Below, piece after piece: positions 12,450 to 32,000 of a DNA stretch of 32,000 nt. The stretch is from Chlamydiota bacterium. Its GTDB lineage: Bacteria; Auribacterota; JACPWU01. The first letter of the stretch is position 1. Each line of letters starts with the position of its first letter. Location: assembly GCA_016196885.1 (NCBI GenBank), contig JACPWU010000053.1, forward strand, positions 504 through 32,503, written 5' to 3'. Made by a program: the position numbers and the translations under genes. The notes beneath the pieces were generated by a model that did not search any database, had not been told where the DNA came from, and saw nothing but the letters and a program-made list of their open reading frames with translations.

Positions 12450-13047
12450 TTTTTCGCTTTATCCCCATCTCCGCCTTCATGCTCTCCAAAACGCCACTGT
12501 CTTTTAAAATCCACTCCGCCGCGCTTCCCAAATTGTCCGCAACATAATCTGGAAAAGGCCACTCATCATCATCCTCATCTAAATTCACACCTTCATTTTC
12601 AGAAAGAAGAAGAATGGTTTTACAACTTGCATTTTTTCCGGTCAGAACATCTGAAATTTTATCGCCAATTAAATACGATTTTTTCAAATCTATCCCGTAC
12701 CTCTTTGCCAAATCCTTCAACATCTTGGGCTGGGGCTTGCGGCAAAGACACTTTTCCTCGGGGCGGTGGGGACAATAACTGATGGCATCCAATTCGATTC
12801 CATCTTTTTGGAACTCTTCCACCATCCGATGATGAATGGATTTGAGCATTTCTTCCGCAATAATGCCACGCCCCACCCCTGACTGATTGGTTACCACAAA
12901 AAGTTTAAACCCCATTTCTTTTAACAAAAGAAGGGCCGGCTTTACGCCAGCAATCAAATGGAAATTTTCGATCTTGCTGATATAACCAATATCCTCGTTC
13001 AGGGTTCCATCTCGATCCAAGAAAATTCCACGATTCTTAACTGACAT
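12445..13047 (-). CDS. gmhB: D-glycero-beta-D-manno-heptose-1,7-bisphosphate 7-phosphatase
   Basis: HAD-IIIA motifs FLDRDGTLN, VTNQSG and the Zn site CPHRPEEKCLCRKP. Start set at ATG 13047 (MSVKNRGIF), overlapping the upstream stop by 11 nt. Confidence 0.88.
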   Translation of the reverse strand: MSVKNRGIFLDRDGTLNEDIGYISKIENFHLIAGVKPALLLLKEMGFKLFVVTNQSGVGRGIIAEEMLKSIHHRMVEEFQKDGIELDAISYCPHRPEEKCLCRKPQPKMLKDLAKRYGIDLKKSYLIGDKISDVLTGKNASCKTILLLSENEGVNLDEDDDEWPFPDYVADNLGSAAEWILKDSGVLESMKAEMGIKRKS

Positions 13048-14955: not shown

Positions 14956-14980
14956 CTTTGAACCCTTAAACCTTTGAACC
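14956..14980 (+). repeat. Tandem octamer tract CTTTGAAC CCTTAAAC CTTTGAAC at the cyclase 3' end
   Basis: Direct reading. It encodes the cyclase C-terminal ..KGSKV and its stop. Confidence 0.8.
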
Positions 14981-16882: not shown

Positions 16883-16947
16883 TGCCAAAGTGATCTCCAA
16901 ATGGTTACAATAGGCGTGTTCGTAAAGTCTGCAATACCCCAAGAAAT

Positions 16948-18347: not shown

Positions 18348-18360
18348 ACTTTAGTGAACC
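18335..18360 (+). repeat. TTTGAACC TTTGAACT TTAGTGAACC tract at the FecR-fusion 3' end
   Basis: Direct reading. Same TTGAAC(C/T) unit as at 14956-14980 and 23237-23286. Confidence 0.75.
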
Positions 18361-19098
18361 ATGTTCCTTTTTCTTAGACTGCTTCTGGCTCATTTCATTG
18401 GAGATTTTCCCTTACAAATCGGCGTGGTTTATTCAGCCAAAGTAAAAAGTGTTCAAGGGAAAATACTTCACGCAGGCCTCGTCACCCTTTCCATGATTGT
18501 CTTTACCTGGCCTTACTGGAAAAATTGGATTTACTGGGGTCTAATCCTTTTCTTAGGAACGCTTCATTTCTTTCAAGACTGGGGGAAACTCGCCATTGCT
18601 CAGAGGATCAAAAATTCTAATAACTTTTTTCTCTACATGGCCGATCAAGTTCTTCATGTGGCCAGTTTCTTCATGATCTGGCTAACGCCCTTACCTCAAA
18701 TCCCGATGAGGGCGAGTCATTCTTTTTTCATCTCTGGACTCTACTTCAACGATAAAGTAACGATCTTTCTGATTGCTGTTTTGGCCGTGAGTTTTGCAGG
18801 GACTTTTACCCTGGCCACCTTCAAGGCCACTTTCCTGTCAGAACGGTTCTACACCCCCTATCTCGACCCCCTGGAGAAAAACTATGGAATTTTAGAAAGA
18901 GGCGTCATGCTCGAATTTTTGATTTTATCCCCGAAGCTCATCTGGCTTTTTCCCCTCTTCCTCCTCTCAAAATTCTTCTATGCCAACCACCAGATCAAAA
19001 AAATCGAAGGAAACCCCTTCACACCTTTTCTCTTGGACACCGTTCTGGGAATGATTTTAACGACCCTCATTTACAAAATATACACCCTCTTCTCCTGA
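18361..19098 (+). CDS. DUF3307 family membrane protein
   Basis: LLLAHFIGDFPLQ hallmark at the N-terminus and multiple TM helices. Starts 13 nt after the preceding gene. Confidence 0.7.
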   Translation: MFLFLRLLLAHFIGDFPLQIGVVYSAKVKSVQGKILHAGLVTLSMIVFTWPYWKNWIYWGLILFLGTLHFFQDWGKLAIAQRIKNSNNFFLYMADQVLHVASFFMIWLTPLPQIPMRASHSFFISGLYFNDKVTIFLIAVLAVSFAGTFTLATFKATFLSERFYTPYLDPLEKNYGILERGVMLEFLILSPKLIWLFPLFLLSKFFYANHQIKKIEGNPFTPFLLDTVLGMILTTLIYKIYTLFS

Positions 19099-19109
19099 TC
19101 AGGAGGCTT

Positions 19110-19171
19110 GACCAAAATGCACCCAATTGCATTTTGGTCTTGACTAAAATGCAATGGGGTGCATTTTGGTC
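19110..19171. repeat. Two adjacent 30-nt hairpins built from four copies of the 12-mer GACCAAAATGCA
   Basis: GACCAAAATGCA cccaat TGCATTTTGGTC tt GACTAAAATGCA atgggg TGCATTTTGGTC. The two loops are nearly complementary to each other. Confidence 0.9.
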
Positions 19172-19253
19172 ACTATGGATAGAATCCAAAAAAAGCTTAA
19201 AACACTACATCACTTCGGCTCTGAGTGATCCTCAAAAAGAAAGATCTTTCGTC

Positions 19254-19281
19254 CCCAGCCCTTTGTTAACAAAGGGCTGGG
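19254..19281. repeat. Perfect 28-nt palindrome CCCAGCCCTTTGTTAACAAAGGGCTGGG
   Basis: Self-complementary over all 28 nt. Lies 35 nt downstream of the CsgG-like stop. No flanking T-tract on either strand. Confidence 0.9.
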
Positions 19282-19315
19282 TCCTCGAGATGACACACAA
19301 ACTAGTGCGTTTGTA

Positions 19316-20266
19316 TCAACCCTCAAACTTCAAAACATCGCCGCGTTGAAAACCACCCCCCCCTACTGTGGTTGCAATTGAAAATTTATCCTGAACTTGA
19401 GAAACTTGAATCAGGCCAATTTTGGTGAGTTCAGAACCCAAATCCATTCCGGTGTCAGGATCCACCAAGGTTTCACCTGGACGATAGACTGTAAGCGTAT
19501 CCCCCATCTGAATACCCGCCGAAGCTCCGGCATTGACAAACACTTTACCCTCCGGCTTCACATCCACAATGCGACCCAACCAAGGAACACTTTGCATACG
19601 ACCCACAATAAAAAAAACAGACTTATCAATCGCCTGCTGACAAGCCTGGCCCAAAGGCGTCTTATCAAAACCCGCTCCACCAAAGGCAAAGTCGCTGTCC
19701 GTGTACGAAAAGGAAAGACCTCCCGCTTCAGCAATTCCTTCACAATGTTGAGAGTCCAAAACCTGACCGGTGGTTGTATCATAGATACGAATATTGACAC
19801 CCACCTTGGCCCGCGATTGATTGGCCCCAATGCGAAAACCATGAACAGCAAATCCACCGCCCTCGCCCCCGCCAGAGGCTTCAAATTCAGTCACAGCGCC
19901 ACTGATCATGATTTGACTCTTAAGAATTTTTCCAATCTTGGCCGCCTCTCCACCCGCCGTGCGACCACTGACTCCAAAATCTTGTTCAGCAATCACCTTT
20001 TCAATTTCGGGACGCTCCACCACAATAAAACGCCCGCTTCGAATGAGTGCAGTGGTCAACATCTCGGCCATGCCATTGCCCAAATCCCATTTGGCCCACT
20101 GACCTGCCTTATTTTCAAAAGTCCCGACCGCAATGGTTTTCTTAGGGCCACTGGGAGCCGGCAAGGCCGCCACAGGAGCCGCCTTCACGGGATACGCAAA
20201 GGCCCCGCCCACTGAACACAAAAGTGAAGCAATCGCTAAAACACTCAAAACCTTCATCTTTTTCAT
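19316..20266 (-). CDS. CsgG/HfaB-family outer-membrane protein with a ~90-aa C-terminal extension
   Basis: Signal peptide MKKMKVLSVLAIASLLCSVGGAFA. CsgG pattern TIAVGTFENKAG..WDLGNGMAEMLTTALIRSGRFIVVERPEIEKVIAEQDF...ISGAVTEFE. Start at ATG 20266 with AGGAG upstream. The track's 35-codon N-terminal extension translates the 100-nt repeat element. Confidence 0.85.
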   Translation of the reverse strand: MKKMKVLSVLAIASLLCSVGGAFAYPVKAAPVAALPAPSGPKKTIAVGTFENKAGQWAKWDLGNGMAEMLTTALIRSGRFIVVERPEIEKVIAEQDFGVSGRTAGGEAAKIGKILKSQIMISGAVTEFEASGGGEGGGFAVHGFRIGANQSRAKVGVNIRIYDTTTGQVLDSQHCEGIAEAGGLSFSYTDSDFAFGGAGFDKTPLGQACQQAIDKSVFFIVGRMQSVPWLGRIVDVKPEGKVFVNAGASAGIQMGDTLTVYRPGETLVDPDTGMDLGSELTKIGLIQVSQVQDKFSIATTVGGGGFQRGDVLKFEG

Positions 20267-20301
20267 GACCTTTAGATTTCTCCTTTCACAAATTAATTTC
20301 G

Positions 20302-20404
20302 ATGATCTTTCGAGATCATCGTATGCAATGAAAGTTCTCCCCATCATGTTTTTTGTAGTCGCCCGATTCATCGGGCAGCCCCATAAATGGGGCGACTACA
20401 AAAA
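20302..20404 (+). repeat. ~100-nt GC-rich structured repeat element, copy B
   Basis: Same orientation as copy A. Over the ~100-nt core I count 4 substitutions plus a 2-nt length difference in the T-run. Lies 36 nt upstream of the CsgG-like start codon. Confidence 0.9.
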
Positions 20405-20417
20405 GAACCTATTCTGG

Positions 20418-21560
20418 CTAAAGAGGTGCTTGTCTTTCCCCAACCCACTTCACATCAATACGGTTTTGAGATTTTGCCGTGACCGCCAAGGCAATGCCGG
20501 GAAGATTCTCTAAGTGAACATCAAAATCTTTCCAGATCGCCCCATCCACAGTCAAATCTAAAATCAAAATATTATTCACAAAACTTCTTTCATTCACACT
20601 CTGAATTCCTCGAATTTCTTCCAAGGTCTTGACAAGCATTTGCTTCGCAGTCGCATTCACACCACTGGCTACCACTTGAATGTTCACCACGTTATAGGCC
20701 TCGCTACGCATTTTCTCAACCATTTCACTCATCAATTTATCTGCCAATTGCCCAGCCCCGAACCGAAGGGCATCCTTAGCAGTTGGAATGCGACCGCCGC
20801 CCCTGGCTTCTCCTTCAACATCATCAGACACCATCACTTCAGCTGTATCTGTTTTAATCACCCGAGCTGAAATCTGGGAGCGGTAAGCAAAAACAGAAAC
20901 GCCGTAGGGTCTAGAATGATCAATCAAATCTGCCGTGGCCTGCCCCACCACCACCATCTCTGCTCCAGATTGACGTCCCAGGGCAGCTGCTTTTTGAGGG
21001 TCGGCATAACTCAAGGCCGCATCTCTTTCCTTAATCATCTGTATCTGATTTTTGTCCACCAGAGGAAAATCCTTGGCAAGAAAAGCCCTCTCCATTTCAG
21101 TTTGAGTCACGGCACCTGCCTGCTCCAATCCATCAATCAATTCAGCAAAAATGAACATCACCCTTGGATTTTCCCGACGCTTCATCGTAATCTTAAGCGC
21201 CTTCAAATTCTTTTCCAAAAGGCCCAAGGCAACCACCGCCCGAACACGAATCACATAAAGCCCATCTTGACCTTGATTATCATTAATCACTTCATAGCTT
21301 GTGACATAACCCTTCACCTGAGAATAGACTTGATCGTCCAAAAGCTGAAAATTGCTGACCATGGTTTCAGAATCAATAATCGAACCCACGCCCTGCTCAA
21401 TGGCATTCCTGAGCGCCCGATTCAAAGCCTCATCATGGGCCTGCAAACTATTTCCTACAGATTTCCCCTCAGCTTCAATCGCTGTCTCAGCAACTTGAGC
21501 AGAAAGTTGAAAACCTGAAAGCATCCCTAATAATGTAAAAAACATGATCCATCTTTTCAT
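20418..21560 (-). CDS. FlgT-like periplasmic protein (LPP20/FlgT_N-like N-domain plus an alpha/beta middle domain and a C-domain)
   Basis: Signal peptide, then AEGKSVGNSLQAHDEALNRALRNAIEQGVGSIIDSETMVSNFQLLDDQVYSQVKGYV..LYVIRVRAVV, which resembles FlgT N-terminal/LPP20-type domains. ~380 aa, similar in size to Vibrio FlgT. Assignment by eye. Confidence 0.5.
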   Translation of the reverse strand: MKRWIMFFTLLGMLSGFQLSAQVAETAIEAEGKSVGNSLQAHDEALNRALRNAIEQGVGSIIDSETMVSNFQLLDDQVYSQVKGYVTSYEVINDNQGQDGLYVIRVRAVVALGLLEKNLKALKITMKRRENPRVMFIFAELIDGLEQAGAVTQTEMERAFLAKDFPLVDKNQIQMIKERDAALSYADPQKAAALGRQSGAEMVVVGQATADLIDHSRPYGVSVFAYRSQISARVIKTDTAEVMVSDDVEGEARGGGRIPTAKDALRFGAGQLADKLMSEMVEKMRSEAYNVVNIQVVASGVNATAKQMLVKTLEEIRGIQSVNERSFVNNILILDLTVDGAIWKDFDVHLENLPGIALAVTAKSQNRIDVKWVGERQAPL

Positions 21561-21583
21561 CTAAGTTTTTCCTTTCTTAACCT

Positions 21584-21665
21584 GTCGTGAGTCGTCGGTC
21601 GTGAGTCGTGAGTAAAAACAAATACTTTTTAAACTCACGACTCACCCCTCACGACTCAAGACTAC
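21584..21665. repeat. Inverted tandem-heptamer element with conserved core (mini-lipoprotein|FlgT-like junction)
   Basis: GTCGTGA GTCGTCG GTCGTGA GTCGTGA G / taaaaacaaatactttttaaa / CTCACGA CTCACCC CTCACGA CTCAAGA CTAC. Confidence 0.9.
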
Positions 21666-21799
21666 TCGACCACTTCCGTCTGTTCTACCACCGTTTCATT
21701 CATAACATCTGTATGATGCTCATGAGGTGCTTCACAACCCCAAAGATTCGTAAGAATGACAGCCACATAAGCAACACCCATCCATTTGAAAAGCTTCAT
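21662..21799 (-). CDS. 45-aa putative lipoprotein
   Basis: Below the track cutoff: MKLFKWMGVAYVAVILTNLWGCEAPHEHHTDVMNETVVEQTEVVE. Has a lipobox-like LWGC and GGAG ~9 nt upstream. Bracketed by two repeat elements. Confidence 0.45.
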   Translation of the reverse strand: MKLFKWMGVAYVAVILTNLWGCEAPHEHHTDVMNETVVEQTEVVE

Positions 21800-21820
21800 G
21801 GTCTCTTCTCCTTGTTTTAA

Positions 21821-21884
21821 CAGTCGTCAGTCGTGAATGTTAAAGGTATTGTTTATTTTTTTACTCATCCTCACCCCTCACCAC
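21821..21884. repeat. Heptamer element with the conserved core in inverted orientation and non-matching arms
   Basis: CA GTCGTCA GTCGTGA / atgttaaaggtattgtttattttttta / CTCATCC TCACCCC TCACCAC. The core is the reverse complement of the taaaaa..ttaaaa core seen elsewhere. Confidence 0.8.
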
Positions 21885-21892
21885 AGCTTTTA

Positions 21893-23215
21893 TTACATTC
21901 TATACTTCCTCAACTTCTCCCACAAGCCCGCCAAAGACAACTGTACATCCACTTGAGCACTTCCATCTTCCAAATAACGAGGCTCACTCACTTGAGCCCC
22001 CGCCAAAAAAGTTTGAACCTGGGCATGGATGTCGTCATTCTGAACGGTAAAGTCCTTCACCGTGGTTTGAGAATCAATCCTAACCCCATAAACCATTTCA
22101 GCTAAATTCCGCTTGGCGTCCATTTCAGCAGCCCTGGCAGCCGCTAGTTTGGCTTCCATTCCCGTTTGCCCTTCAGGTGGGATACCCGTCCCTGTCGCAC
22201 TCACCACTTGGAGAGCCCACTCAGGGGTCGTGGGTTGGACCATGGCCACAGGTCCCTGCGCTTCTTGAGGAGCTGTCATGTATTTCTCAGGAGGAACTCC
22301 TTCTCCCGTGACACGGATGACTTTCTTAGGATAAAAATCCAGAACCTCCTCAAACTTGGTGGTTCTCAAATGCTCATGAGCCCAATGATGATAAGGATCG
22401 TAGTGAATGTACCAATCGCGAATGGTGGTCAACTCCTTCACCACCGTTTGAATCGCCACTTCCACATCCACTTGGCAAGTCCCATCGGGAAGATAACGAT
22501 AAGGTCCTGCAGTTCTCATCCCCTTGATAAAAGTATCTACCTTGGTTGTGACCTGATCGGACTCCGCCACAAAATCACGAACGTACGTATCAGCCGTGAT
22601 CTGAAGTCCCTTGATTCGCTCCGCCATGTTGCGATAGGCATCTACCTTTGCTGCCCGTTCAGCCATCATACGGCCCTGAGCCGTCACACTCTCCCAACCA
22701 GGAACTCCTGTACTGGGCACTGCGGAAACACTTTCACCCATGGGAGGAAGAGGAGCCTCACCTGGATTCAAACGAGGGGCCCCATGGCCGGTCTCACGAA
22801 TGACTTTTTGACGATTGACGGTGACCATTTGGTCGAATGAATACACGTGATCGTGGCACAAATGATGATACACGGTGTAAACCCTTTGCAACTGCTGCAC
22901 CACTTCTTCCAAGGTTACCTCCACACTCACCTCAGCCGAGCCATCTTCAAAATAACGGGGAGGACCCACGCGAACACCCTTGATAAAAGTGTCCAGCTCT
23001 GTATTGATTTCATCGGCCTCGGCCACAAAATCACGAACATACGTGGTCGCATTGATCTGTAAACCTTTGATTCTTTCAGCCAAATTACGATAGGCATCCG
23101 CTACGGCAGCCCGCTTCGCCAAAAGCTTTTCTTGCGCTGGTTGCAAGGCCCACGACGGACTGGCCATTACCCACGCAAAAGCAAACAACGTTAAAACACT
23201 CGCTAACTTTTTCAT
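21893..23215 (-). CDS. Secreted protein with three tandem FlgP/LPP20-like domains
   Basis: Signal peptide MKKLASVLTLFAFAWVMASPSWA. Three repeats of RAA..DAYRN(L/M)AE.I.G..I...T.V.DF.......v..FikG......Y..DGs..V.V. Start at ATG 23215 with GGAGG 8 nt upstream; the track start is GTG 23221. Confidence 0.7.
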   Translation of the reverse strand: MKKLASVLTLFAFAWVMASPSWALQPAQEKLLAKRAAVADAYRNLAERIKGLQINATTYVRDFVAEADEINTELDTFIKGVRVGPPRYFEDGSAEVSVEVTLEEVVQQLQRVYTVYHHLCHDHVYSFDQMVTVNRQKVIRETGHGAPRLNPGEAPLPPMGESVSAVPSTGVPGWESVTAQGRMMAERAAKVDAYRNMAERIKGLQITADTYVRDFVAESDQVTTKVDTFIKGMRTAGPYRYLPDGTCQVDVEVAIQTVVKELTTIRDWYIHYDPYHHWAHEHLRTTKFEEVLDFYPKKVIRVTGEGVPPEKYMTAPQEAQGPVAMVQPTTPEWALQVVSATGTGIPPEGQTGMEAKLAAARAAEMDAKRNLAEMVYGVRIDSQTTVKDFTVQNDDIHAQVQTFLAGAQVSEPRYLEDGSAQVDVQLSLAGLWEKLRKYRM

Positions 23216-23270
23216 ATACACTCCCTCCTCTTTCGCTTTTGAACTTCAGATTTTATAGTCCCTGTAGGGA

Positions 23271-23786
23271 TTAAACCCTTGAACCTTCTATTTCCTCCCA
23301 TTCCCCCTGAGAAATTTCTTCCGTTTTGTCATCCACCACATAAACTGGAACACCATAAACTCTCATACGCCGAGAAAAGCAAGCCTCATCATCACACGGA
23401 TGAACCAAGCTGACATCCAAAACCATCTTCACTTGAACCCCGCCATCTGGTAAATAAACTTTCTCGATCACCTTAGCACCGCGAATAAATCCTGTCTCAG
23501 AAATAATAGAAGAGCCATCTCTTAACTCTAGACTCATTCGAGAAAGGGTGCGGGCGAGATTGTAATAAGCCTTCACTTTTGCGGCTCGCTCAGCCAAGAG
23601 TCTGGCCTGGGCGAGAGAACGACCTTGAGGAGCTTCACCTCTTCCAAGCGCTTCAAGACTCATGCTTGAAGGACTTTGTTGAACGGTTTCGCGATTCACA
23701 GTCACGATGACATCTTCCCCCTGTGCAAAACCGAATACTCCTTGTAAGAAGAAAAGTGTTGTTATTATAGAGCGAGCTTTTGTCAT
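23271..23786 (-). CDS. Secreted protein with one FlgP/LPP20-like domain
   Basis: Signal peptide, then ARLLAERAAKVKAYYNLARTL...GFIRGAKVIEKVYLPDGGVQVKMVLDV. Confidence 0.65.
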   Translation of the reverse strand: MTKARSIITTLFFLQGVFGFAQGEDVIVTVNRETVQQSPSSMSLEALGRGEAPQGRSLAQARLLAERAAKVKAYYNLARTLSRMSLELRDGSSIISETGFIRGAKVIEKVYLPDGGVQVKMVLDVSLVHPCDDEACFSRRMRVYGVPVYVVDDKTEEISQGEWEEIEGSRV

Positions 23787-24327: not shown

Positions 24328-25860
24328 ATGCAAATCAACCAAATCATCAACGAATTAGGAAAAGAAAGCCTTGGAGAATTGATTAAGGTCAGTACCCTTA
24401 TCAATTCTTCCCTAGACCTTTCTGAAATTCTGACCCATGTCATGGAGCTTACCAATAGATTGTTAAATTGCGAGGCAAGCTCTCTTCTTTTACTGAATGA
24501 AAAAACCAATGAGCTCTCTTTTAAAACAGCCACAGGCGAAAAAGCTCAAGACATGAAGGCCTTCAATCTCAAAATGGGTCAAGGGATTGCGGGCTGGGTC
24601 GCTCAGAAGGAAAAGGCGGTGATTATTCCAGATGTTGAAAAAGATCCCCGCCATTTCAGCCAAGCCGATTCCAAAACCGGATTCAAAACCAAATCCATTC
24701 TTTGCGTCCCCATGAAAGCCAAAGGTCAATTGATTGGTGTTTTGGAAGGGATTAACAAAAAAGAAAATTTAGTTTTTGATGAAGCGGATCTTTCCTTGGC
24801 TTCCATTCTTGCGGATCAAGCTGCGACGGCCATTCAAAATGCCAGGGTTTATGAAGAACTCCAGCAAGACCATGAAAATCTAAAAAAAGAAGTACGGCCC
24901 AAGCAAACATTGGTCGGAAAATCTAAAATTATTCAAGATATTTTAAAAATGGCAGGCCGAGCAGCTCAAGGAGATTCTACCCTCTTGATTCGCGGGAAAA
25001 GCGGCACGGGAAAAGAAATGCTTGCCCGCGCCATCCACCAATTGAGCCCACGATCCAACAAGCCTTTTGTTTGTGTCACGTGCTCTATTCTGACCCAGAC
25101 ACTCTTGGAGAGTGAACTTTTTGGCCACGAGAAGGGGGCCTTTACGGGAGCCGATTCCAGAAAAATCGGCCGATTTGAAATGGCTGATGGCGGGACGCTC
25201 TTCTTAGACGAAATCGGAACCCTGGCCCCAGAAACACAACTTCGACTCTTGAGAGTTCTTCAGGACAAGGAATTTGAACGCGTGGGTGGACGAGAAACCA
25301 TCAAGGTCAATGTACGCATCATCGCTGCCACCAATGAAGATTTGGAGAAAGGGATTCAGGAAAATAAATTTCGTGAGGACCTTTATTATCGCTTGAAGGT
25401 GATTGAGATTTTCATGCCTGAGCTGAAAGATCGATCTGAAGATATTCCGATTCTTGCCCAGCATTTTTTAGAAATTTACTCTCGTGAAATGGCCCGTCCT
25501 GTCAAAGGAATTTCTAAAGAAGCGATTGAAATTTTAAGAAATTATCACTGGCCAGGAAATGTTCGGGAACTGAAAAACACCATCGAGCGATCGGTCGTTT
25601 TAGGGTCCAGTGAATACATTGTCTCCGAGGACTTGACTACAGAAATTCGTCATCCCCGTGAGGGAGCTACATCGCTTCCTTCAAGAGAGGGTCCATCGCA
25701 ACTTCCTTCCGGAAACACCCTTGAAGAAGCAGAAATTCGCCATATTCAGGAGATACTCGTCAAAACCAACGGCAATAAAAGCAAAGCCGCCGAACTCCTC
25801 GGCATTTCCAGAAATCGCCTCGACCGAAAATTGGCAGGGATTAAACCGGCCGCGAAATGA
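24328..25860 (+). CDS. Sigma-54-dependent transcriptional activator (GAF + AAA+ + Fis-type HTH)
   Basis: N-terminal GAF-like domain, GKSGTGKEMLARAIH Walker A, ESELFGHEKGAFTGA (GAFTGA loop), and the C-terminal HTH KSKAAELLGISRNRLDRKL. No receiver domain. Confidence 0.93.
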   Translation: MQINQIINELGKESLGELIKVSTLINSSLDLSEILTHVMELTNRLLNCEASSLLLLNEKTNELSFKTATGEKAQDMKAFNLKMGQGIAGWVAQKEKAVIIPDVEKDPRHFSQADSKTGFKTKSILCVPMKAKGQLIGVLEGINKKENLVFDEADLSLASILADQAATAIQNARVYEELQQDHENLKKEVRPKQTLVGKSKIIQDILKMAGRAAQGDSTLLIRGKSGTGKEMLARAIHQLSPRSNKPFVCVTCSILTQTLLESELFGHEKGAFTGADSRKIGRFEMADGGTLFLDEIGTLAPETQLRLLRVLQDKEFERVGGRETIKVNVRIIAATNEDLEKGIQENKFREDLYYRLKVIEIFMPELKDRSEDIPILAQHFLEIYSREMARPVKGISKEAIEILRNYHWPGNVRELKNTIERSVVLGSSEYIVSEDLTTEIRHPREGATSLPSREGPSQLPSGNTLEEAEIRHIQEILVKTNGNKSKAAELLGISRNRLDRKLAGIKPAAK

Positions 25861-26002: not shown

Positions 26003-27160
26003 ATGTTAAACAGATACGTTGAACTCCCTCTGAAACAATCCTTTTTTCTCTTTGGATCCCGCCAAACAGGGAAGAGCACGCTCATTCAAACGCACACCCC
26101 TGAAAAGACTTGGAAGATAGACCTTCTTTCATCTGACCTTTTTTTTAAATACTCCAGAGACCCTTCTTTATTCCGTCAAGAGGCAGAGGAAAAGATTAAA
26201 AACGAAAAAATACATACTATTTTTGTAGATGAGATTCAGAGAGTCCCCATTCTGTTAAATGAAATTCAGTCATTGATGGGCCTATGGAATGGGCAATTCA
26301 TTCTGACAGGGTCTAGCGCAAGAAAACTTAAGAAAGGAGGCGCTAATTTATTGGCCGGAAGAGCCGTTGTCAAATATCTATTCCCCCTCATCTATGAAGA
26401 ACTGAAAGATGGATTTAAGTTAGAAGAGGTTCTTCTCTTTGGAACCCTGCCTGCCATTTTGGGTAAAACAAAAGAGGAAAAAATTCAGATTCTCTCCACC
26501 TATGCAAACACTTACCTAAGGGAAGAAATTCAGAGCGAAGGAATTGTCAGAAATCTAGGAGGATTTTCACGGTTTCTAGATTTGTCTGCAAGTCAGTCTG
26601 GAGAACTGGTCAGTTTCTCAGCCATTGGACGAGAATGCCATTTACCTACACGAACGGTTCAATCTTACTACGAAGTTTTAGAAGACACCCTAATCGGCTT
26701 TAGACTTGAGGCCTGGGAAAAATCAATCAGAAAACGTTTAGTCAGTCATCCTAAGTTCTATTTTTTTGATCTGGGCGTAACAAATGCGATCAACCGGTGT
26801 CTGAAAGGGGGATTGCCCTCGCCTCTCAAGGGACGGCTTTTTGAACAATTTGTTATTCTAGAAACCTATCGCCTACTCCATTATCATGAAAGTGAAGCGA
26901 GGCTTTTTTTCTGGAGAACCAATCATGGAGCTGAAGTTGATTTACTTATTGAAAAACATGGAGAAATGATCGGTGCCTTTGAAATCAAATCCTCTTCAAA
27001 TATTGCAAAGGCGGATTTATCCGGTCTAAAATCCTTTCAAGAGGATTTTCCAAAAACACCTTGCGCCCTTGTCTCGACGGCAATCCATGCTTACCAAATC
27101 GATTCGATCAAAATCTTGCCCTGGCAGGTTTATTTAGAGAAGATATCTTCCCTTCTATAA
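26003..27160 (+). CDS. AAA-family ATPase with C-terminal DUF4143 (COG1373 type)
   Basis: FLFGSRQTGKSTL Walker A, IFVDEIQ Walker B, and a typical DUF4143 C-terminal half. Confidence 0.85.
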   Translation: MLNRYVELPLKQSFFLFGSRQTGKSTLIQTHTPEKTWKIDLLSSDLFFKYSRDPSLFRQEAEEKIKNEKIHTIFVDEIQRVPILLNEIQSLMGLWNGQFILTGSSARKLKKGGANLLAGRAVVKYLFPLIYEELKDGFKLEEVLLFGTLPAILGKTKEEKIQILSTYANTYLREEIQSEGIVRNLGGFSRFLDLSASQSGELVSFSAIGRECHLPTRTVQSYYEVLEDTLIGFRLEAWEKSIRKRLVSHPKFYFFDLGVTNAINRCLKGGLPSPLKGRLFEQFVILETYRLLHYHESEARLFFWRTNHGAEVDLLIEKHGEMIGAFEIKSSSNIAKADLSGLKSFQEDFPKTPCALVSTAIHAYQIDSIKILPWQVYLEKISSLL

Positions 27161-27246: not shown

Positions 27247-27504
27247 ATGAAATATAGAATAGAACTCAGGAAATCCGCAGAAAAGGCTTTAGGCAAACTT
27301 GATGCTAAAAAGCGGGGGTATGTTTATGTAAAGTTACTGGAATTAGGAGAAAATCCTCGGGACCGCAAATGCGAGAAATTAAAGGGGATTGAACAGGGTT
27401 ATCGTAAGGTCGCGTGGCCTTATCGTATTTTGTACACGATTAATGACGAACATAAAATTGTAGACGTTTATTTAATTGCTCATAGAGAGGAGGCTTATCG
27501 GTGA
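27247..27504 (+). CDS. RelE/ParE-family type II toxin
   Basis: Y.IE....A.K.L.KLD......V..KL.EL.ENP......KL.G....YR.....YRILY.I.D....V.V..I.HR..AY pattern; 85 aa. Confidence 0.85.
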   Translation: MKYRIELRKSAEKALGKLDAKKRGYVYVKLLELGENPRDRKCEKLKGIEQGYRKVAWPYRILYTINDEHKIVDVYLIAHREEAYR

Positions 27505-27725
27505 AAACAATTTCCATTGGGTTTGAAGACTCGTTATTTAATGAAATGAATGAAAAAGCAAAGATATTAAAAACAACACGTTCTGAACTCGTTCGGAATG
27601 CCATCATGGAATATCTCTTTCGGTTTGACGAGATCTTAGACGCAAAAATGTTACAGCATGCGATTGAAAAAGATGAATCGAAAAAATCATTAAACCAAAT
27701 TGCCCATGAACTTGGATTGGCGTAA
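27501..27725 (+). CDS. Ribbon-helix-helix (CopG-like) antitoxin
   Basis: GTG start overlapping the toxin stop (GTGA). N-terminal RHH pattern ISIGFEDSLFNEMNEKAKILKTTRSELVRNAIMEYL. Confidence 0.72.
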   Translation: MKTISIGFEDSLFNEMNEKAKILKTTRSELVRNAIMEYLFRFDEILDAKMLQHAIEKDESKKSLNQIAHELGLA

Positions 27726-27772: not shown

Positions 27773-28078
27773 TTACGCTGCTTGACCCAGCTTATAAATG
27801 TGAACCTCTCGTTCAAGACGTTTGCCTAAATGGTCTTTTCCAATTTCTATATCGTACCTGACTTGCAGATTCATCCAAAAGCGTTCTGAGGTTCCGAAAT
27901 AGCGTGAGAGTCTGAGGGCTGTATCTGTACTAATGCTACGGTCTCCATGCACAATTTCATTGATGCGGCGGGCAGGAACAGAAATATCCTTTGCAAGTCG
28001 GTATTGACTGATTCCCATCGGTCTTAAAAACTCTAACAACAATATTTCTCCTGGATGAACCGGGCTCATTTTTTTCAT
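27773..28078 (-). CDS. higA: HigA-family antitoxin (XRE HTH)
   Basis: HPGEILLLEFLRPMGISQYRLAKDISVPARRINEIVHGDRSISTDTALRLSRYFGTSERFWMNLQ is the classical HigA signature. Confidence 0.88.
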   Translation of the reverse strand: MKKMSPVHPGEILLLEFLRPMGISQYRLAKDISVPARRINEIVHGDRSISTDTALRLSRYFGTSERFWMNLQVRYDIEIGKDHLGKRLEREVHIYKLGQAA

Positions 28079-28103: not shown

Positions 28104-28385
28104 TTAATGATAATCAACCATCTCAACTCGATAGGCACGGCCATTCGCCCATTCAAAACAAATACGCCATTGTTTGTTAACCCGAATGCTATATTGATCT
28201 CTTCTTTTACCAAGCAACTTTTCAAGATGATTAGAGGGTGGTATTCTTAGATCTTCCAAAACTTCGGCCGCATCCAGCAACATCAACTTCCTAAGCGCCG
28301 CAGCTTGAATATCCTGAGGTAATTTCCGAGAACCCTCTCGGCAAAATATTCGCTCAGTTTCTTTACATCTAAAATTTTCAATCAC
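28104..28385 (-). CDS. higB: HigB-family toxin (RelE fold)
   Basis: IENFRCKETERIF....R.LP.DI...A.RKL..L......EDL..PP.N.LE.L.G.R..QYSIR.N.QWRICF.W......V...DYH. Start set at GTG 28385, which gives the typical ~93 aa. An upstream GTG at 28439, abutting the giant ORF stop, is the alternative. Confidence 0.82.
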   Translation of the reverse strand: MIENFRCKETERIFCREGSRKLPQDIQAAALRKLMLLDAAEVLEDLRIPPSNHLEKLLGKRRDQYSIRVNKQWRICFEWANGRAYRVEMVDYH

Positions 28386-28391
28386 AGGAGA

Positions 28392-28420
28392 ATAATAACA
28401 TGAGGCGTTAATAACGTCAA
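28392..28420 (-). promoter_or_regulatory. Sigma-70-type promoter for higBA
   Basis: The minus strand reads TTGACG, 17 nt, TATTAT, then 6 nt, then GTG 28385. No Shine-Dalgarno is present. Confidence 0.4.
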
Positions 28421-28439
28421 AAGGTATTCTTAAAAACAC

Positions 28440-31400
28440 TTACATCGAACCCTGAGTAGCTTCTTCTTCCTGACGCAGCCATTGTAAACGTTCTAGAGGA
28501 GTGCGGGGAGCTTTCATGGGTTTTTTTAATTCATTTCGATCGACCTTCTTAAAAGCATTCAAAAGGTCTTGGTCCTTGACTGAATTTCCAGAAACAAGTT
28601 TCTCTAAAATCCAATCCATTTGTTGATCATCTAAGGAACCTCTTATCACAAGATAAACAAGATTTTCTCCTGAAAGAGGATCCGTCTTTAATAAATCGGC
28701 ATAATGATCCTGATCTCCTTCTGCAATCACAAACCGAACACGCTCTTCTCTATTCCCACTTCGTTGTGCCCCCGCAAAAAATTCATGGATTACATCCCCT
28801 TTCACCTTTGCTCCTAGAGCGTGACTTCTAACGGCCTCATCATGGGCCTCGTAGTAGCGAACAGTCATGTTATCTTTTAACCGGCCATACCTATCTCCAC
28901 AAACGGATTTAAAAATTTTCTCAGTCAGATCAGAAGGTAAATCATTTTTTGAGACCCCTTCAGGAAGAACAATCGAAATCACGATTCTAAATTTGTTCTT
29001 TTGAAGCAGCTGAATAGAATAGTTGTAGAAGAGTTCAAAGTTATCACGAGAGGCCTTCACCTCCCACTCTCCAGAACCCTTTTGAGCAAGTTCAATCCCA
29101 AATGTTTTTTGGGTCATCACCAAAACTTTGAGTGGAGTTTCATCTCTCTTTTTACCTTTGATAGGCTCGCGATAATTTGCCAATCGATCTTGGTATTGTT
29201 CACCAACCGTCTTAACATGAGCCTGAAGTAACCATCCATTCTTCAAAATTTCAACCTTGTCTCCTTCCAAATCTGAATCCTGCTTTGTATCATTCTCATC
29301 ATGATATTTCACCGCCCATCCTCTTTCCAGAGATTGAGGGTCACTTAAAAGAGTCAGCAATAATTTTTGGAAGCGGTCGGGGTGAATCGCCCCCAAACTT
29401 GTAAGGTCAAGGTAGAGATAACCATGATTGAATGATTTCACTCTAGCGCAAAAATCTCGCACTGCGAAACGAGTTGCTGGAGAAAGATCCACAGAAAGCC
29501 ACTGTCCCTCGTTCAATACCTCTAAATTTCCAGTAGTAGAAAATCTCAAAATTTTGGACTGTGATTTTTGAATTAAAACTTTTAATTCATCCGACATATG
29601 AAGCTGCTGTCCTAAGCCTACTAAGGCATTGATTGTTTTTTGATCGCGAAGGCGTTCCAATGCTGCAAAAAATCCAAAGACTGGTGTTAAGCCTGAGAGG
29701 AAAACTTGAGACAGAGGATTGTAACTTTGAATGGATTCTACCTGGCGCCTCAATTCTTTTTGTTCGTATCTTAAAACAACATCCAAAGACTGATGAGATA
29801 AAATTTCATGAGAAATCCCATAATATTCCTTTCCAGCAACATAGCTTTCAATAAGTTGACTCAAGCCTCCAGAATAAGTCCTGCCACTTCTTAAGTGATT
29901 CGCAATAAGAAGGAAAAGAACCACTACATCCTGAACCATGGGAAGTCGTGCATCATCATTGATAGTTCTTTGAGCGCTTGTTTCCTGAGCCATACGCAAA
30001 TTGACTACTCCTTCAATATGACGCATCACATCTCCAAAACTAGGCTGATCGGTAGCCAAAAACTTTAGGGCATTGTCAATGGCTTGAGTTAAGTCCCGAT
30101 CTTCAGGATCAGCACTCAAGTGCTTTCTTAAGAGCAAAAGATAATCTTCTCTCTCAAGACTCTGAAGAAAATGAGGTGCTTTGTTTTGAATATTTTGAAC
30201 GAGGTTAAATTTTGATTCTAGAGATACATTTTTCGCAAAAGTCTGGGCAAGCTCACCTCCCTTTTTACTTAAAGCCTCTCCACTCACTTTCTCTTGAATA
30301 TCTCGAAGAGCCGCCTCTTCTCCTGGAGCCAGACTCTCAAGACTCTTTGGATCTTGAGCACGTCGCCTGACCAACTCTCGAGCGACTCTTCCCTTGACCG
30401 CTCCGTCGATCACCCTCTCACTCTCAGGAAGATCTAAGTCAAAGAGCGGCTCCATCAAGACCATTTCCGTATGAATCGCACGGTTAAAGAGATCTATTTC
30501 TTGAGGTTCTATGGAAACTGAAAGGGCTTCCATTCTCACTGGCAACTGAAGTCTACGCCATCCCTCGATAAATTCATGGGAAATGGCATCTTTAAAAAAC
30601 CCTTCTGTCATAGCAATGCGAATGGTATGGCCGCTGATTTGTGTGACGGCCGATTCTGAAACACCTAAATCTTTTGCCAAATAAATCTGAACCGTATAAT
30701 TTTGTCTAACTTCGGAGAATGGGATAAAAGATCCCTTTTCAGATTGACCGCCCTCGGGAGGAGTTGCAAGCGCTCCGAGGACTTTCTTGAACGGCTCTAA
30801 ACCCATATCCTCAACCTTCAAACCTAATTTTCCAAATTCACCCTCAAGAAATTCAGGCGCGTAACGATTAACCATCTTTAACATTTTTTTGGCTTGTTCT
30901 CTTTCTTCCTCTCTAACTCCCCGCGTCACAATTTGACCCCCATCAATCTGTGTAAAGACTCGATCGACCTCTTCTTGCGTCAGATTTCGAGTTCCGATAC
31001 GTTTTTGATGGGTACCGGAAGACGAATCACCTTTAGTTAAGGGGGTTTTCAAAGCATCACTCCATCGCAAATCACGAGCACTCCGCTGACCTCCATTGAT
31101 TTTAACAAAGTTGATTTTAAAACCGTCTGGGCAGGTTTCAGATTGAATCTGATACTGAAAAACAGCAGCCCCTGATTTTACATTTATTGAAGCCATCAAT
31201 CCGTCTTGCCCTCTACTCAGTTCCAACTCAAAGGCATCTCCACTGTCTCCAAGTCCGCTTAGAATGACCTCCTCCCCTTCCGAAAATCCTAATCGAAGGG
31301 TTCCCTCTGCCCCCAAGTTTCCATGAAGACGATCTGCATCTCGAATCTCTACGATCAATAACGGCGGAATGTTGCCGCTCCGTTCGGCCTCTAAAAACCG

Positions 31401-32000
31401 CTGGACAAGATATCTAAAGTGAAAGGTGTCCGGATCCCAATTAAAAAACTGAAGCAAGCGAATATCACTTTGAAGACCGATCATCTCTGGAGTATTCGCA
31501 GAAACTCCCGCCTGAATAAGTTGTTCATAATATTTTTCTAGTTCACCAAATAGAAGCCTACCCTTTTTCTTATTCTGATCCAGCATCCCTTCTCCATTTC
31601 CATAAATCTTTTTAAGAAAATCTGGAACTGAATTTGCCCCTCTATGATACTTTCGAATAATCCTTTGAATCTCATTGAAAACTCTTTTTTGCGTCGTAGG
31701 GTCAATCTTGTCAGCAGCGACCCCATCCCCAAGATTCTTTGTCTTTGTCGTTTTCCCCTTTCTTCGATTCCACCACCCAGCCGCTTTTCCAGAAACCTTC
31801 GCAGCGCTCCAAGCCGTTAAAGCGCTACGCAATTTTCCATCACTCACGTAACTCTCAAATGTAATACCCTCCACCTTATCTACTTGTCTGGCAGAAGGGG
31901 GCTTCCCTCCTAAAGAAGGTGTGGAGTGAAGATATTCCGAGGGGTCTAAAAGAACCAATCCCTCCTCTCTTCCATCCTCTGTGAGTCGAACCAAAACAAA
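28440..32000 (-). CDS. Giant orphan protein, C-terminal 1186 or more codons; ORF open to the right edge
   Basis: Uninterrupted frame from the window edge to TAA 28440-28442. The only in-window start candidate is TTG 31994, and the two codons beyond it are also open. No domain recognised by eye. Confidence 0.75.
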   Translation of the reverse strand, partial: FVLVRLTEDGREEGLVLLDPSEYLHSTPSLGGKPPSARQVDKVEGITFESYVSDGKLRSALTAWSAAKVSGKAAGWWNRRKGKTTKTKNLGDGVAADKIDPTTQKRVFNEIQRIIRKYHRGANSVPDFLKKIYGNGEGMLDQNKKKGRLLFGELEKYYEQLIQAGVSANTPEMIGLQSDIRLLQFFNWDPDTFHFRYLVQRFLEAERSGNIPPLLIVEIRDADRLHGNLGAEGTLRLGFSEGEEVILSGLGDSGDAFELELSRGQDGLMASINVKSGAAVFQYQIQSETCPDGFKINFVKINGGQRSARDLRWSDALKTPLTKGDSSSGTHQKRIGTRNLTQEEVDRVFTQIDGGQIVTRGVREEEREQAKKMLKMVNRYAPEFLEGEFGKLGLKVEDMGLEPFKKVLGALATPPEGGQSEKGSFIPFSEVRQNYTVQIYLAKDLGVSESAVTQISGHTIRIAMTEGFFKDAISHEFIEGWRRLQLPVRMEALSVSIEPQEIDLFNRAIHTEMVLMEPLFDLDLPESERVIDGAVKGRVARELVRRRAQDPKSLESLAPGEEAALRDIQEKVSGEALSKKGGELAQTFAKNVSLESKFNLVQNIQNKAPHFLQSLEREDYLLLLRKHLSADPEDRDLTQAIDNALKFLATDQPSFGDVMRHIEGVVNLRMAQETSAQRTINDDARLPMVQDVVVLFLLIANHLRSGRTYSGGLSQLIESYVAGKEYYGISHEILSHQSLDVVLRYEQKELRRQVESIQSYNPLSQVFLSGLTPVFGFFAALERLRDQKTINALVGLGQQLHMSDELKVLIQKSQSKILRFSTTGNLEVLNEGQWLSVDLSPATRFAVRDFCARVKSFNHGYLYLDLTSLGAIHPDRFQKLLLTLLSDPQSLERGWAVKYHDENDTKQDSDLEGDKVEILKNGWLLQAHVKTVGEQYQDRLANYREPIKGKKRDETPLKVLVMTQKTFGIELAQKGSGEWEVKASRDNFELFYNYSIQLLQKNKFRIVISIVLPEGVSKNDLPSDLTEKIFKSVCGDRYGRLKDNMTVRYYEAHDEAVRSHALGAKVKGDVIHEFFAGAQRSGNREERVRFVIAEGDQDHYADLLKTDPLSGENLVYLVIRGSLDDQQMDWILEKLVSGNSVKDQDLLNAFKKVDRNELKKPMKAPRTPLERLQWLRQEEEATQGSM

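Follow-up and report, generated by a model that had tools for sequence, protein, structure and literature searches.

A contig-end-truncated large gene of a probably Omnitrophota-like bacterium, with sequence evidence for a small protein family and for exchange between lineages

At the end of the window, i.e., the whole 32,000-nt stretch of DNA analysed here, a minus-strand reading frame covers the last 3.56 kb (3′) of a gene that is functional and evolves under purifying selection. The 5′ end of this gene was lost to assembly; what is left specifies at least 1186 C-terminal residues of a large protein with several domains. Sequence comparisons assign this protein to a paralogous family that is very small and so far undescribed, and indicate that its gene moved recently between two lineages that co-occur and are deeply diverged. 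Taken jointly, the results could describe a recently exchanged gene of a new family, encoding an exported contact protein with a zincin-like HE domain and a chassis module, a reading whose chances we consider evenly balanced.

Open frame, coding status and neighbouring genes

The frame comprises 1186 sense codons followed by a TAA at 28440-28442, and the stops in the remaining five frames across 28440-32000 number 54-87; the probability of an open frame of such length arising by chance at the given composition is ~1e-35. According to the ORF listing, the first possible initiator inside the edge is TTG 31994, with the codons 5′ of it also open. The NCBI record HYZ67_08590 contains the identical 1186 aa on a 32,503-nt contig and is annotated as a 5′-partial CDS, which means that the window and the contig end at the same point; the earlier note, which had described the frame as open up to and beyond that TTG, was correct on this point. 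In all three assemblies the large gene is interrupted at a contig end, and no upstream contig carrying the missing 5′ part was matched in the searched public sequence collections. When compared to the orthologue with 89% amino acid identity, its only close relative, the gene showed a dN/dS of 0.28, a third-position excess of mismatches (80/57/129 by codon position), and a sole indel, which was in frame and spanned 11 codons. No stops or frameshifts were present across 3.5 kb in either of the two diverged copies. This dN/dS comparison, which the earlier note had proposed as a coding check, speaks against a decaying pseudogene.

The 1186-aa fragment contains no transmembrane (TM) segments (maximum Kyte-Doolittle 19-residue mean 1.59), no Walker A or other nucleotide-binding motif, and no internal repeats, as self-BLASTP returned the self match only and TRF detected just one 21-nt array in the gene. 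Likewise, the large protein showed no nuclease, NTPase, or sensor motifs and no phage or plasmid relatives were found. A HExxH motif is absent from it; the non-canonical HEFIEG (residue 475) and HEILSH (731) already named in the earlier note were located together with HEFFAG (1072). The absences listed in the earlier note (TM segments, P-loop, canonical HExxH, and internal repeats) were thus all reproduced. Motif, profile, and structure searches did not place the protein in a known family such as RHS, MARTX, or adhesin repeats.

Regarding the surroundings (Table 1), the predicted presence of toxin-antitoxin genes and a COG1373 ATPase was confirmed. The first pair follows the HigBA type II order, with a RelE-like HigB toxin and then a HigA antitoxin of the HTH type, both above cut-offs. 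The mechanically called HigB-like ORF extends to 28439, while its Pfam match begins at ORF residue 22; translation probably starts at a GTG (28385) that is preceded by a sigma-70-like site (28420->28392). In the second pair, the toxin matched Pfam ParE_toxin (E 4e-7) and the partner matched RHH_1 (E 1.3e-3) and DUF6290 (E 5.7e-4), both under gathering scores. A paralogue of the ATPase, 39% identical, sits upstream of the family member P0017 in another genome. Additionally, an IS110 transposase adjoins P0017, and a multi-enzyme ORF of at least 6910 aa adjoins P0005, another family member.

Table 1. Features of the large gene and its neighbours, with coordinates in the window.
Feature	Position	Strand	Remarks
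5′-truncated CDS	28440..32000	-	C-terminal part of large protein; start codon beyond contig end; identical to P0001
N-terminal part of fragment, residues 1-326	31023..32000	-	homologue: only the 89%-identical orthologue (phmmer vs all family members)
K/T-rich stretch varying by indel, residues 81-98	31707..31760	-	pairwise alignment with orthologue
HE region, residues ~340-540	30381..30983	-	~200 aa long, precedes module; homologous to P0006 720-913 (HMMER)
HEFIE motif, residues 475-479	30564..30578	-	colinear with relatives' HExxH-type motifs
HTEMVLME, residues 510-517	30450..30473	-	second conserved element, ~40 residues past motif; AF2 model helix 174-195
C-terminal module, residues 596-1186	28443..30215	-	family-defining, ~590 aa; HMMER core 627-1171
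Alpha/beta sub-domain, residues ~956-1075	28776..29135	-	sole confidently modelled module part, pLDDT 76-90
HigB-like toxin	28104..28385	-	directly downstream of large gene; Pfam HigB-like_toxin PF05015, E 2.8e-22
HigA antitoxin	27773..28078	-	NCBIfam TIGR02607, E 5e-32; Pfam HTH_3
Second toxin-antitoxin-like pair	27247..27725	+	ParE-like toxin 27247-27504, then ribbon-helix-helix/DUF6290-like 27501-27725
AAA_14/DUF4143 (COG1373-type) ATPase	26003..27160	+	Pfam; PADLOC candidate system PDC-S01, E 3.7e-61; GC3 0.378

Family membership, the C-terminal module, and the HE region

Searching 1.84e9 representatives exhaustively with HMMER returned 6 matches, and a cluster look-up extended the membership; by both, the family is confined to three related MAGs from groundwater plus a few metagenome contigs. 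The genome HYS07 carries the paralogues P0005 (1367 aa) and P0017 (3108 aa), HYZ66 carries a split P0017 orthologue, and JGI fragments also belong to the family, whose members are arranged in tandem at locus L004. An apparent frameshift was seen in L006, which is a distant relative. The earlier description of a giant orphan protein therefore stands in part: no described family was found with the fragment in Pfam, NCBIfam (0 matches at E<=0.1 in both), PADLOC, PHROG, or PDB sequence searches, but the HMMER relatives show that it is no strict orphan, and the word "giant" finds no support in the complete relatives, which measure 1,367-3,108 aa.

The C-terminal module is common to P0003, P0004/P0014, P0005, and P0007/P0017 (22-30% identity, E 1e-9 to 1e-52), and runs from an N-terminal helical part through an alpha/beta part to an extreme C-terminus that is conserved (...TQGSM). 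Its AF2 model had a mean pLDDT of 58.6; neither a PDB sequence match nor a PDB fold match was found for the module, and Foldseek returned weak generic Rossmann/HAD-like matches only (best E 0.02). A SecA-like identity was considered and rejected (hhalign probability of 0.2% against E. coli SecA, no Pfam SecA match). The regions ahead of the module vary among relatives: P0017 bears helical repeats, some 10 TM segments, and a DxDxT motif of the HAD type; P0005 has a TM pair directly ahead of the module, its bilobed hydrophobic segment spanning residues 670-738; and P0014 has just one TM, alongside an extended beta-rich stretch, the HE domain, and the module. Pfam searches with the relatives gave nothing at E<=0.01 beyond one weak HAD match.

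The HE region aligns between residues 327 and 538 with P0006 residues 720-913, and the frameshifted continuation of P0006 aligns with residues 551-594. In its AF2 model (pTM 0.59, pLDDT 61.6), which like that of the module is of low to moderate confidence, helices precede a 4-stranded sheet, the HEFIE helix, and then a helix bearing H510...E517. The positions colinear with HEFIE read HELAH in P0003/P0009/P0010/P0014, HEVLEH in P0017, and HEFIEN in P0006, which suggests that HEFIEG is probably not incidental but occupies the site of the relatives' canonical HExxH. In alignment A2 neither the His of the motif nor the Glu downstream of it varies; E517, 42 residues after H475, falls on the helix predicted to follow and could serve as the third metal ligand. 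The arrangement resembles the M48 (HtpX/Ste24) and M56 (BlaR1) gluzincins in its helix-borne HExx[H/E] after a small beta-sheet and in the conserved Glu on the following helix, ~40 residues on. Unlike these enzymes, the window copy lacks the second zinc-binding His and its motif is not situated between TM helices. The top Foldseek list for the HE region included BlaR1 M56, MATCAP, ZMPSTE24, and SPRTN (E 0.48, non-significant), one family member had a weak Pfam Peptidase_M56 match (E 0.15), and the best hhalign alignment set the HE motif on the HEISH of HtpX (probability 0.45%, non-significant). As the signals are concordant but no profile or fold match to any zincin family reached significance, the HE region is possibly zincin-like.

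Three complete N-termini in the family, those of P0006, P0017, and L004 gene 2, open with a hydrophobic stretch that looks like a signal, while the paralogue P0005 has no N-terminal signal peptide. Export of the window protein, whose own N-terminus is cut off, is therefore plausible by analogy with these relatives. P0006 is colinear with the fragment, which itself shows no TM between its HE domain and the module. Its residues 1-326 are unmatched in the signal-bearing relatives, so the upstream architecture may differ. Those three relatives open with a shared "domain A" of ~550 aa with conserved HIxDxHCHxEAQ and TGGFH motifs, one copy of which has a weak Cofac_haem_bdg match (E 0.027, below the Pfam threshold). 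Its likeness to the Tiki/ChaN/TraB superfamily (Pfam PF04187 clan) concerns the relatives only, as the domain is absent from the window. Domain A may be the missing N-terminus of the window protein; a link between the first residues of the fragment and the end of domain A was tested and found unsupported.

Exchange between lineages and the host

The large gene shares 91.7% nucleotide identity with its HYS07 copy, in contrast to 71-75% for the flanking HPF, HprK, and PtsI genes, and its pS is 0.16 versus 0.67-0.86 for the flanking housekeeping genes, which are synonymously saturated. Its GC3 of 0.355 corresponds to that of HYS07 genes (0.35-0.42) and not to that of the housekeeping genes of the window genome (0.45-0.53). 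An identity of 92% amid saturated flanks, together with the foreign GC3, points to recent horizontal exchange. In both genomes the gene is located upstream of the HPF-HprK-HPr-PtsI cluster on the same strand, and at the orthologous locus it is neighboured by YebC and RuvCAB. Along the gene dS forms a mosaic ranging from 0.03 to 0.39. The large gene, the toxin-antitoxin genes, and the ATPase (GC3 0.30-0.38 together) form a block of composition foreign to the window genome, and the accessory island proposed earlier is thereby supported and extended. Recombining surface-protein genes are known from host-associated bacteria, for example pmp and ompA of chlamydiae. The large gene is like them in its mosaic divergence and in an inter-lineage identity far above that of flanking core genes, but it shares no sequence or domain with them, and a surface location is here only proposed.

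The best matches of the CTP synthase PyrG were mostly from Omnitrophota (60-64% identity), and none of the best 80 came from Chlamydiota. Judged from this single marker gene, the host is probably Omnitrophota-like, despite the NCBI label "Chlamydiae bacterium". The window-related assemblies are absent from the Omnitrophota genome list in the Seymour 2023 supplements.

Possible function, alternative explanations, and significance

The sources used for the Omnitrophota comparison were West-Roberts et al. 2023 (10.1101/2023.11.21.568195) and Nielsen & Lui 2026 (10.64898/2026.06.07.730766). Long Omnitrophota proteins carry a TM segment or signal peptide in 94% of cases, are Pfam-dark in 15%, and are often cut at contig ends, with IS110 and toxin-antitoxin flanks (10.64898/2026.06.07.730766; 10.1101/2023.11.21.568195); in the giant ones, C-terminal TM anchors are followed by a cytoplasmic SecA-like domain (10.1101/2023.11.21.568195). 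The window protein resembles this class in its probable host, unique sequence, Pfam-dark character, and contig-boundary cut in an NCBI MAG, and its family does so through relatives with signal or TM segments, HAD motif, and helical repeats, with TM segments ahead of a conserved C-terminal domain, and with flanking IS110 and toxin-antitoxin genes. Unlike the giants (>=10-30 kaa, Archaeovorin/dockerin type), the known family members measure 1.4-3.1 kaa, the fragment contains no SecA DEAD-like, dockerin, TSP3, glycosyl hydrolase/transferase, or C39 domains, and its C-terminal module forms a separate family. In contrast to most published giant-gene loci, no secretion (T2SS), pilus, or glycoside hydrolase genes were found near the gene in the window.

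On the model of the long proteins of Omnitrophota-type episymbionts, the complete protein would most likely be Sec-exported or envelope-anchored through an N-terminal signal or anchor, as in its complete relatives, and would probably act at the cell surface or envelope, touching another cell, either host or prey. The HE domain could be a zincin-like unit that binds or cleaves peptides, its HExxE variant being perhaps altered or non-catalytic, and the C-terminal module could provide a shared family chassis for anchoring, assembly, or secretion. Frequent recombination between lineages would fit selection for interaction specificity. A further-reaching version, which we consider quite unlikely, is that the module and the HExx[H/E] domain define a new class of envelope proteins that episymbiotic PVC bacteria of the Omnitrophota-like kind exchange horizontally; the module would then be a new fold for the export, anchoring, or assembly of long proteins, taking over the function of the SecA-like tail of the known giants, HExxE would be a new zincin metal-site variant, and swapping would tune host or prey specificity.

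Several other explanations were weighed against that of an exported contact protein. It is unlikely that the fragment is a cytoplasmic or inner-membrane piece of a modular "multi-enzyme" long protein with a non-proteolytic HE motif and an intracellular module. The HAD motif, helical repeats, and TM segments ahead of the module in P0017, the TM pair and missing signal peptide of P0005, the multi-enzyme ORF beside the latter, the anchor-then-SecA layout of the published giants, and the generic alpha/beta fold of the confidently modelled module part agree with such a piece, but three complete family N-termini are signal-like, P0014 has no TM after its first, the module is unlike SecA, and a nucleotide-binding motif is absent. 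A role in anti-phage or other defence, suggested in the earlier note, is decidedly improbable: HigBA, the ParE-like pair, and the PDC-S01-matching ATPase adjoin the gene in a foreign block and a same-type ATPase lies close to P0017, yet PADLOC did not match the large protein, so that the neighbourhood alone speaks for defence. Moreover, the fragment has none of the motifs or phage and plasmid relatives searched for, the orthologous locus has YebC and RuvCAB rather than defence genes as neighbours, the two ATPases share just 39% identity, and signal or TM segments as well as tandem arrangement are seen among family members.

Large lineage-specific effectors are common in chlamydiae, and together with the NCBI organism name and the bilobed hydrophobic segment of P0005 they could suggest a type III-secreted effector or an Inc-like inclusion-membrane protein. 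Against this stand the Omnitrophota affinity of the CTP synthase, the ORF of at least 6910 aa in a related genome, the Sec-type rather than effector-type N-termini of complete relatives, and a fragment that has no hydrophobic segment, and we hold such an effector to be just as improbable as a defence role. Contig-end cuts in all three assemblies, the GC3 shift inside the contig, and the apparent frameshift in L006 could likewise reflect a decaying pseudogene or a chimeric contig giving a false transfer signal. This is very improbable in view of the purifying selection and intact frames; furthermore, a window copy that diverges by 8% from its HYS07 counterpart is not simply joined-on HYS07 DNA, and strand and position relative to the HPF-HprK-HPr-PtsI cluster are conserved. 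A divergent RHS/YD, MARTX/RTX, or repeat-adhesin protein is extremely improbable, as only size and accessory-region position favour it, while Pfam and NCBIfam matches, RTX (GGxGxD), YD (YxYD), and LPXTG motifs, internal repeats, and PDB sequence or fold matches are all absent.

Long proteins lacking recognisable domains are thought to mediate attachment and predation in uncultured, host-dependent PVC bacteria, and most are sequence-unique and cut at contig ends. To these our analysis adds a small family with a conserved module at its C-terminus and a putatively metallopeptidase-like domain, as well as clear evidence of such a gene moving between deeply diverged lineages that live together. It also illustrates that an NCBI organism label can mislead, here towards a "chlamydial effector" instead of an "Omnitrophota-type long protein". 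At present, the finding is a useful yet unsurprising extension of a known class of long proteins, with a function that is proposed here. Should the module indeed prove to serve export or anchoring, this would go some way towards explaining the display of very large proteins by such bacteria.

Coding status and truncation of the large gene

The large gene at the window edge (HYZ67_08590) remains open over 1186 sense codons on the minus strand, while the five other frames of the same stretch contain 54-87 stops, and the probability of an open frame this long at this base composition is about 1e-35. The uninterrupted frame up to the edge reported in the earlier note was thus borne out; TTG 31994, which the note named as the only in-window initiator candidate, is the first possible initiator past the edge, and the frame is already open ahead of it. 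The NCBI record gives the same 1186 residues as a 5'-partial CDS of a 'Chlamydiae bacterium' on a contig of 32,503 nt, so the window edge is also the contig edge. Among 5.8 billion proteins, the sole close relative was P0002, which is 89% identical, likewise 5'-partial, and derived from the related MAG GCA_016178055.1 (HYS07); a second related MAG (HYZ66) encodes the identical protein. The codon alignment of the window and HYS07 copies gave a dS of 0.186, a dN of 0.052, and a dN/dS of 0.28, with 80/57/129 mismatches at the three codon positions and a single indel of 11 codons that preserves the frame. These values, including the dN/dS check proposed in the earlier note, exclude both a chance ORF and a decaying pseudogene; this is a real gene under selection that was cut by the assembly.

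The contigs of the window and of HYS07 both start at the identical base of the large gene, and HYZ66 holds an identical 1175-aa partial protein. As three assemblies break at one place, a systematic assembly break is indicated, which points to a repeat, or to a point where co-occurring variants converge, as its cause. The first 141 nt are identical in the window and HYS07 contigs; however, a k=141 de Bruijn node or branch was dropped as an explanation because two contigs of HYZ66, which is a sister assembly from the same population, share an overlap of 103 nt. A terminal repeat in common with the paralogue P0017 or with an IS110 element was likewise unsupported, as no second copy of the terminal 400 nt occurred in any fetched locus. 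The upstream part of the gene was not found by single-protein search of GTDB representative genomes, JGI metagenome contigs, and IMG/VR, and looking up the exact sequence of the large protein (P0001) yielded no recorded contig.

Family membership and domain architecture

The large protein had been described as an orphan, which did not hold in the strict sense. When 1.84 billion representatives were searched exhaustively with HMMER, six proteins were recovered, and cluster look-ups indicated that the family consists mostly of paralogues within one MAG group. HYS07 encodes P0005 (1367 aa) and the complete P0017 (3108 aa), HYZ66 carries the P0017 orthologue split into P0016 and P0007, and P0003/P0009/P0010, P0004/P0014, P0006, and P0018 are fragments from JGI metagenomes. 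Searching with P0014, a central member, added only one cluster. The other absences listed in the earlier note were confirmed: the protein shows no TM segment, no P-loop (the Walker A motif is absent), no internal repeats, and no HExxH (HEFIEG, HEILSH, and HEFFAG occur instead). Searches of Pfam, NCBIfam, PADLOC, PHROGs, and PDB sequences likewise returned nothing for it. Assignment to RHS, MARTX, or repeat adhesins failed in every Pfam/NCBIfam, motif, and repeat search.

All members have in common a C-terminal module (query residues ~596-1186, counted from the truncated end), in which identity is 22-30% and E-values reach 1e-52, and the extreme C-termini of several members are alike (TQGSM, QTATMA, AQSSM, AQTAM). 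The AlphaFold2 model of the module had a mean pLDDT of 58.6 and a pTM of 0.38, with a confident alpha/beta sub-domain at ~956-1075, for which Foldseek searches of the module returned weak, generic Rossmann/HAD-like matches (best E 0.02). When PDB sequences were searched with the module profile, only two chance-level matches at E 1.2 came up. Likeness to SecA was rejected, its probability in a direct hhalign test being 0.2%, and a HAD assignment based on YLDLT and DRDLT was rejected too, the Asp being unconserved across the family. By these comparisons, the module constitutes a family of its own.

Further upstream, query residues 327-538 match residues 720-913 of P0006, and residues 16-59 of the frameshifted continuation of P0006 on its metagenome contig (L006) match query 551-594, which makes the two proteins colinear. 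On this contig, the P0006 ORF ends at 2962 and is overlapped and continued colinearly by an ORF in another frame, so that the gene either is truly frameshifted or contains a sequencing error. On another JGI contig (L004), a second family gene lies in tandem 95 nt beyond P0014, which has 1656 aa and is cut at its N-terminus. The P0017 loci of HYS07 and HYZ66 are 99.8-99.9% identical and differ by a duplication or deletion of ~148 nt immediately upstream of the P0017 start codon.

The region at query ~340-540 (HE region) contains HEFIE at residues 475-479, and the HEFIEG pointed out in the earlier note proved to lie where relatives carry HELAH (P0003/P0009/P0010/P0014), HEVLEH (P0017), or HEFIEN (P0006). 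In one family alignment (A2), the first His of the motif is invariant, as is a Glu ~40 residues on (query E517, in HTEMVLME). The AlphaFold2 model of residues 326-600 reached a pTM of 0.59, its residues 11-200 having mostly pLDDT 63-87, and places helices, a four-stranded sheet, the motif helix, and then a helix with H510/E517 in succession, an order typical of the zincin/gluzincin core. Foldseek against the PDB gave no match below E 0.48, with BlaR1 (M56), MATCAP, ZMPSTE24, and SPRTN among the top entries of the non-significant list; likewise, one relative matched Pfam Peptidase_M56 at a non-significant E of 0.15. In its best alignment with HtpX of E. coli, hhalign set motif on motif at a probability of 0.45%, and the profile search of PDB sequences was empty. 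The tests point the same way; since none was significant and the second His of HExxH is missing from the window copy, the zincin-like appearance of the HE region may serve as a lead, and the region is not classed as a metallopeptidase.

Exchange between lineages and the surrounding island

The large gene is 91.7% identical in DNA between the window and the HYS07 locus, and the likeness stops at the stop codon. HPF, HprK, and PtsI, which follow the large gene in the same orientation in both genomes, are 71-75% identical. Synonymous sites differ at a proportion of 0.16 in the large gene versus 0.67-0.86 (saturated) in four housekeeping genes with conserved synteny (HPF, HprK, HPr, and PtsI). In the window, GC3 amounts to 0.355 for the large gene, 0.30 for HigB, 0.38 for HigA, 0.38 for the ATPase, and 0.45-0.53 for housekeeping genes; in HYS07 it is 0.352 for the large gene, 0.36-0.42 for housekeeping genes, and 0.35 and 0.41 for P0005 and P0017. 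These figures argue for a recent exchange of the gene between distant co-occurring lineages, and the simplest reading would be that the window lineage recently acquired it from an HYS07-like donor, in whose lineage the family is expanded. A chimeric contig could produce a false signal of transfer; with a difference of 8% between the window and HYS07 copies, this is less likely. Along the gene, dS is 0.03 over the first 100 codons, 0.23-0.39 over codons 100-500, about 0.19 over codons 500-900, and 0.07-0.13 over the last 286 (900-1186), an unevenness that suggests repeated recombination.

The accessory island proposed in the earlier note was supported, with the large gene itself forming part of the low-GC3 block and not just bordering it; the remainder of the window consists of core genes, among them those for PTS, HPF, Lpt, and Kdo functions and pyrG. 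No tRNA adjoins the island, and the Rfam search of the window returned nothing, also for the ~105-nt element. In HYS07, a short ORF past the large gene resembles the truncated N-terminus of a HicB-type antitoxin, so that different toxin-antitoxin remnants occupy one position in the two genomes. The HigB ORF abuts the large-gene stop codon; given a sigma-70-like site within its extension and a Pfam match starting at ORF residue 22, HigB probably begins at GTG 28385 with its own promoter. AAA_14/DUF4143 ATPases lie near two different family members in two genomes; both match the PADLOC candidate system PDC-S01 and are 39% identical. The ~105-nt element contains a hairpin and a 13-nt perfect inverted repeat (TTTTGTAGTCGCC...GGCGACTACAAAA) around two small hairpins. 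On either strand its predicted folding is much stronger than that of shuffled sequences (z about -5 to -6), and it may represent a REP/MITE-like element or a small structured RNA.

Coordinates of features in the window and in related loci
Feature	Locus	Coordinates	Remarks
Large gene	window	28440-32000, minus strand	sense codons 32000 -> 28443; stop TAA 28440-28442
HigB ORF extension	window	28385-28439
Best sigma-70-like site, HigB strand	window	28420->28392	TTGACG-17-TATTAT with TG
ParE-like toxin ORF, then ribbon-helix-helix/DUF6290-like ORF	window	27247-27725	4-nt overlap; toxin-first, reverse of usual parDE order
AAA_14/DUF4143 ATPase	window	26003-27160
GAF/sigma-54 activator	window	24328-25860	adjoins envelope-gene cluster
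Envelope-gene cluster	window	17025-23786	FecR+LPP20 protein; DUF3307; CsgG-like protein with FlgT_C-like tail; 380-aa protein without Pfam match; second LPP20 protein (442 aa); 171-aa protein without match
CHASE2 adenylate/guanylate cyclase	window	14966-16942	adjoins envelope-gene cluster
CTP synthase (pyrG)	window	9994-11634
~105-nt intergenic element	window	8800-8905; 20300-20405	~95% identity
~105-nt element	L003 (HYS07)	5700-5960	split by ~80-nt insertion
Short HicB-like ORF	L001 (HYS07)	3601-3720	just 3' of large-gene orthologue; MKTYRTVIEHCPETRFYVGYVPGFAGAHIQNEIVHGDRNN*
AAA_14/DUF4143 ATPase	L002 (HYS07)	4286-5443	IS110 transposase between it and P0017
~148-nt difference	L002 (HYS07)	7686-7834	compared with L089 (HYZ66)
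ORF of at least 6910 aa	L003 (HYS07)	6068-12800	adjoins P0005
P0014 and second family gene	L004 (JGI)	4-6980
Interrupted P0006 gene	L006 (metagenome)	215-4013	continuing ORF 2934-4013

Host placement and possible role

The CTP synthase of the window was 60-64% identical to its closest matches, mostly from Candidatus Omnitrophota MAGs (best 30 matches, GTDB representative genomes), and no Chlamydiota CTP synthase appeared in the best 80. The 'Chlamydiae bacterium' label is therefore doubtful, and the host is probably Omnitrophota-like, a placement based on this one marker; the assemblies are missing from a published Omnitrophota list. The kdsB-pyrG-kdsA synteny was discarded as a taxonomic marker, being too widespread. 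The ORF adjoining P0005 carries enoyl-CoA hydratase, AMP-binding, and ADH_zinc_N domains, like the 'multi-enzyme' giants known from Omnitrophota. Long Omnitrophota proteins have TM helices or a signal peptide in 94% of cases and lack a domain match in 15%; most have a unique sequence, contig boundaries truncate them in NCBI MAGs, and IS110 and TA genes occur in their flanks (10.64898/2026.06.07.730766; 10.1101/2023.11.21.568195). The large gene and its relatives resemble them in host placement, in the neighbouring giant of HYS07, and in the IS110 transposase adjoining P0017.

Three complete N-termini (P0006, P0017/P0016, and the second gene of L004) open with a signal-like hydrophobic segment, followed by a 'domain A' of ~550 aa with the motifs HIxDxHCHxEAQ and TGGFH, one copy of which weakly matched the ChaN/Tiki superfamily (E 0.027). 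A visual match of the first nine query residues (FVLVRLTED) to the last strand of this domain was unsupported by hmmsearch. Given the colinearity with P0006, and since the stretch separating the HE region from the module is free of TM segments in the query, the most economical reading would place the protein in the envelope, at the surface, or otherwise exported. Against it, the N-terminus of the query is absent from the contig, its first 326 residues resemble no relative beyond the orthologue, and P0005 has no signal peptide. A modular long protein that is cytoplasmic and non-proteolytic is a serious alternative. The defence role raised in the earlier note draws on the neighbourhood, but the protein has no PADLOC match, the orthologue stands beside YebC and RuvCAB, and no phage or plasmid relatives were found. 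A chlamydial effector or Inc protein would depend on the doubtful taxonomic label.

Our best estimate, which is not proven, is that the gene encodes an envelope or surface protein that is exported and contains a zincin-like domain. Its family is tiny and undescribed, and the large protein belongs to the long, Pfam-dark proteins of host-dependent PVC bacteria.
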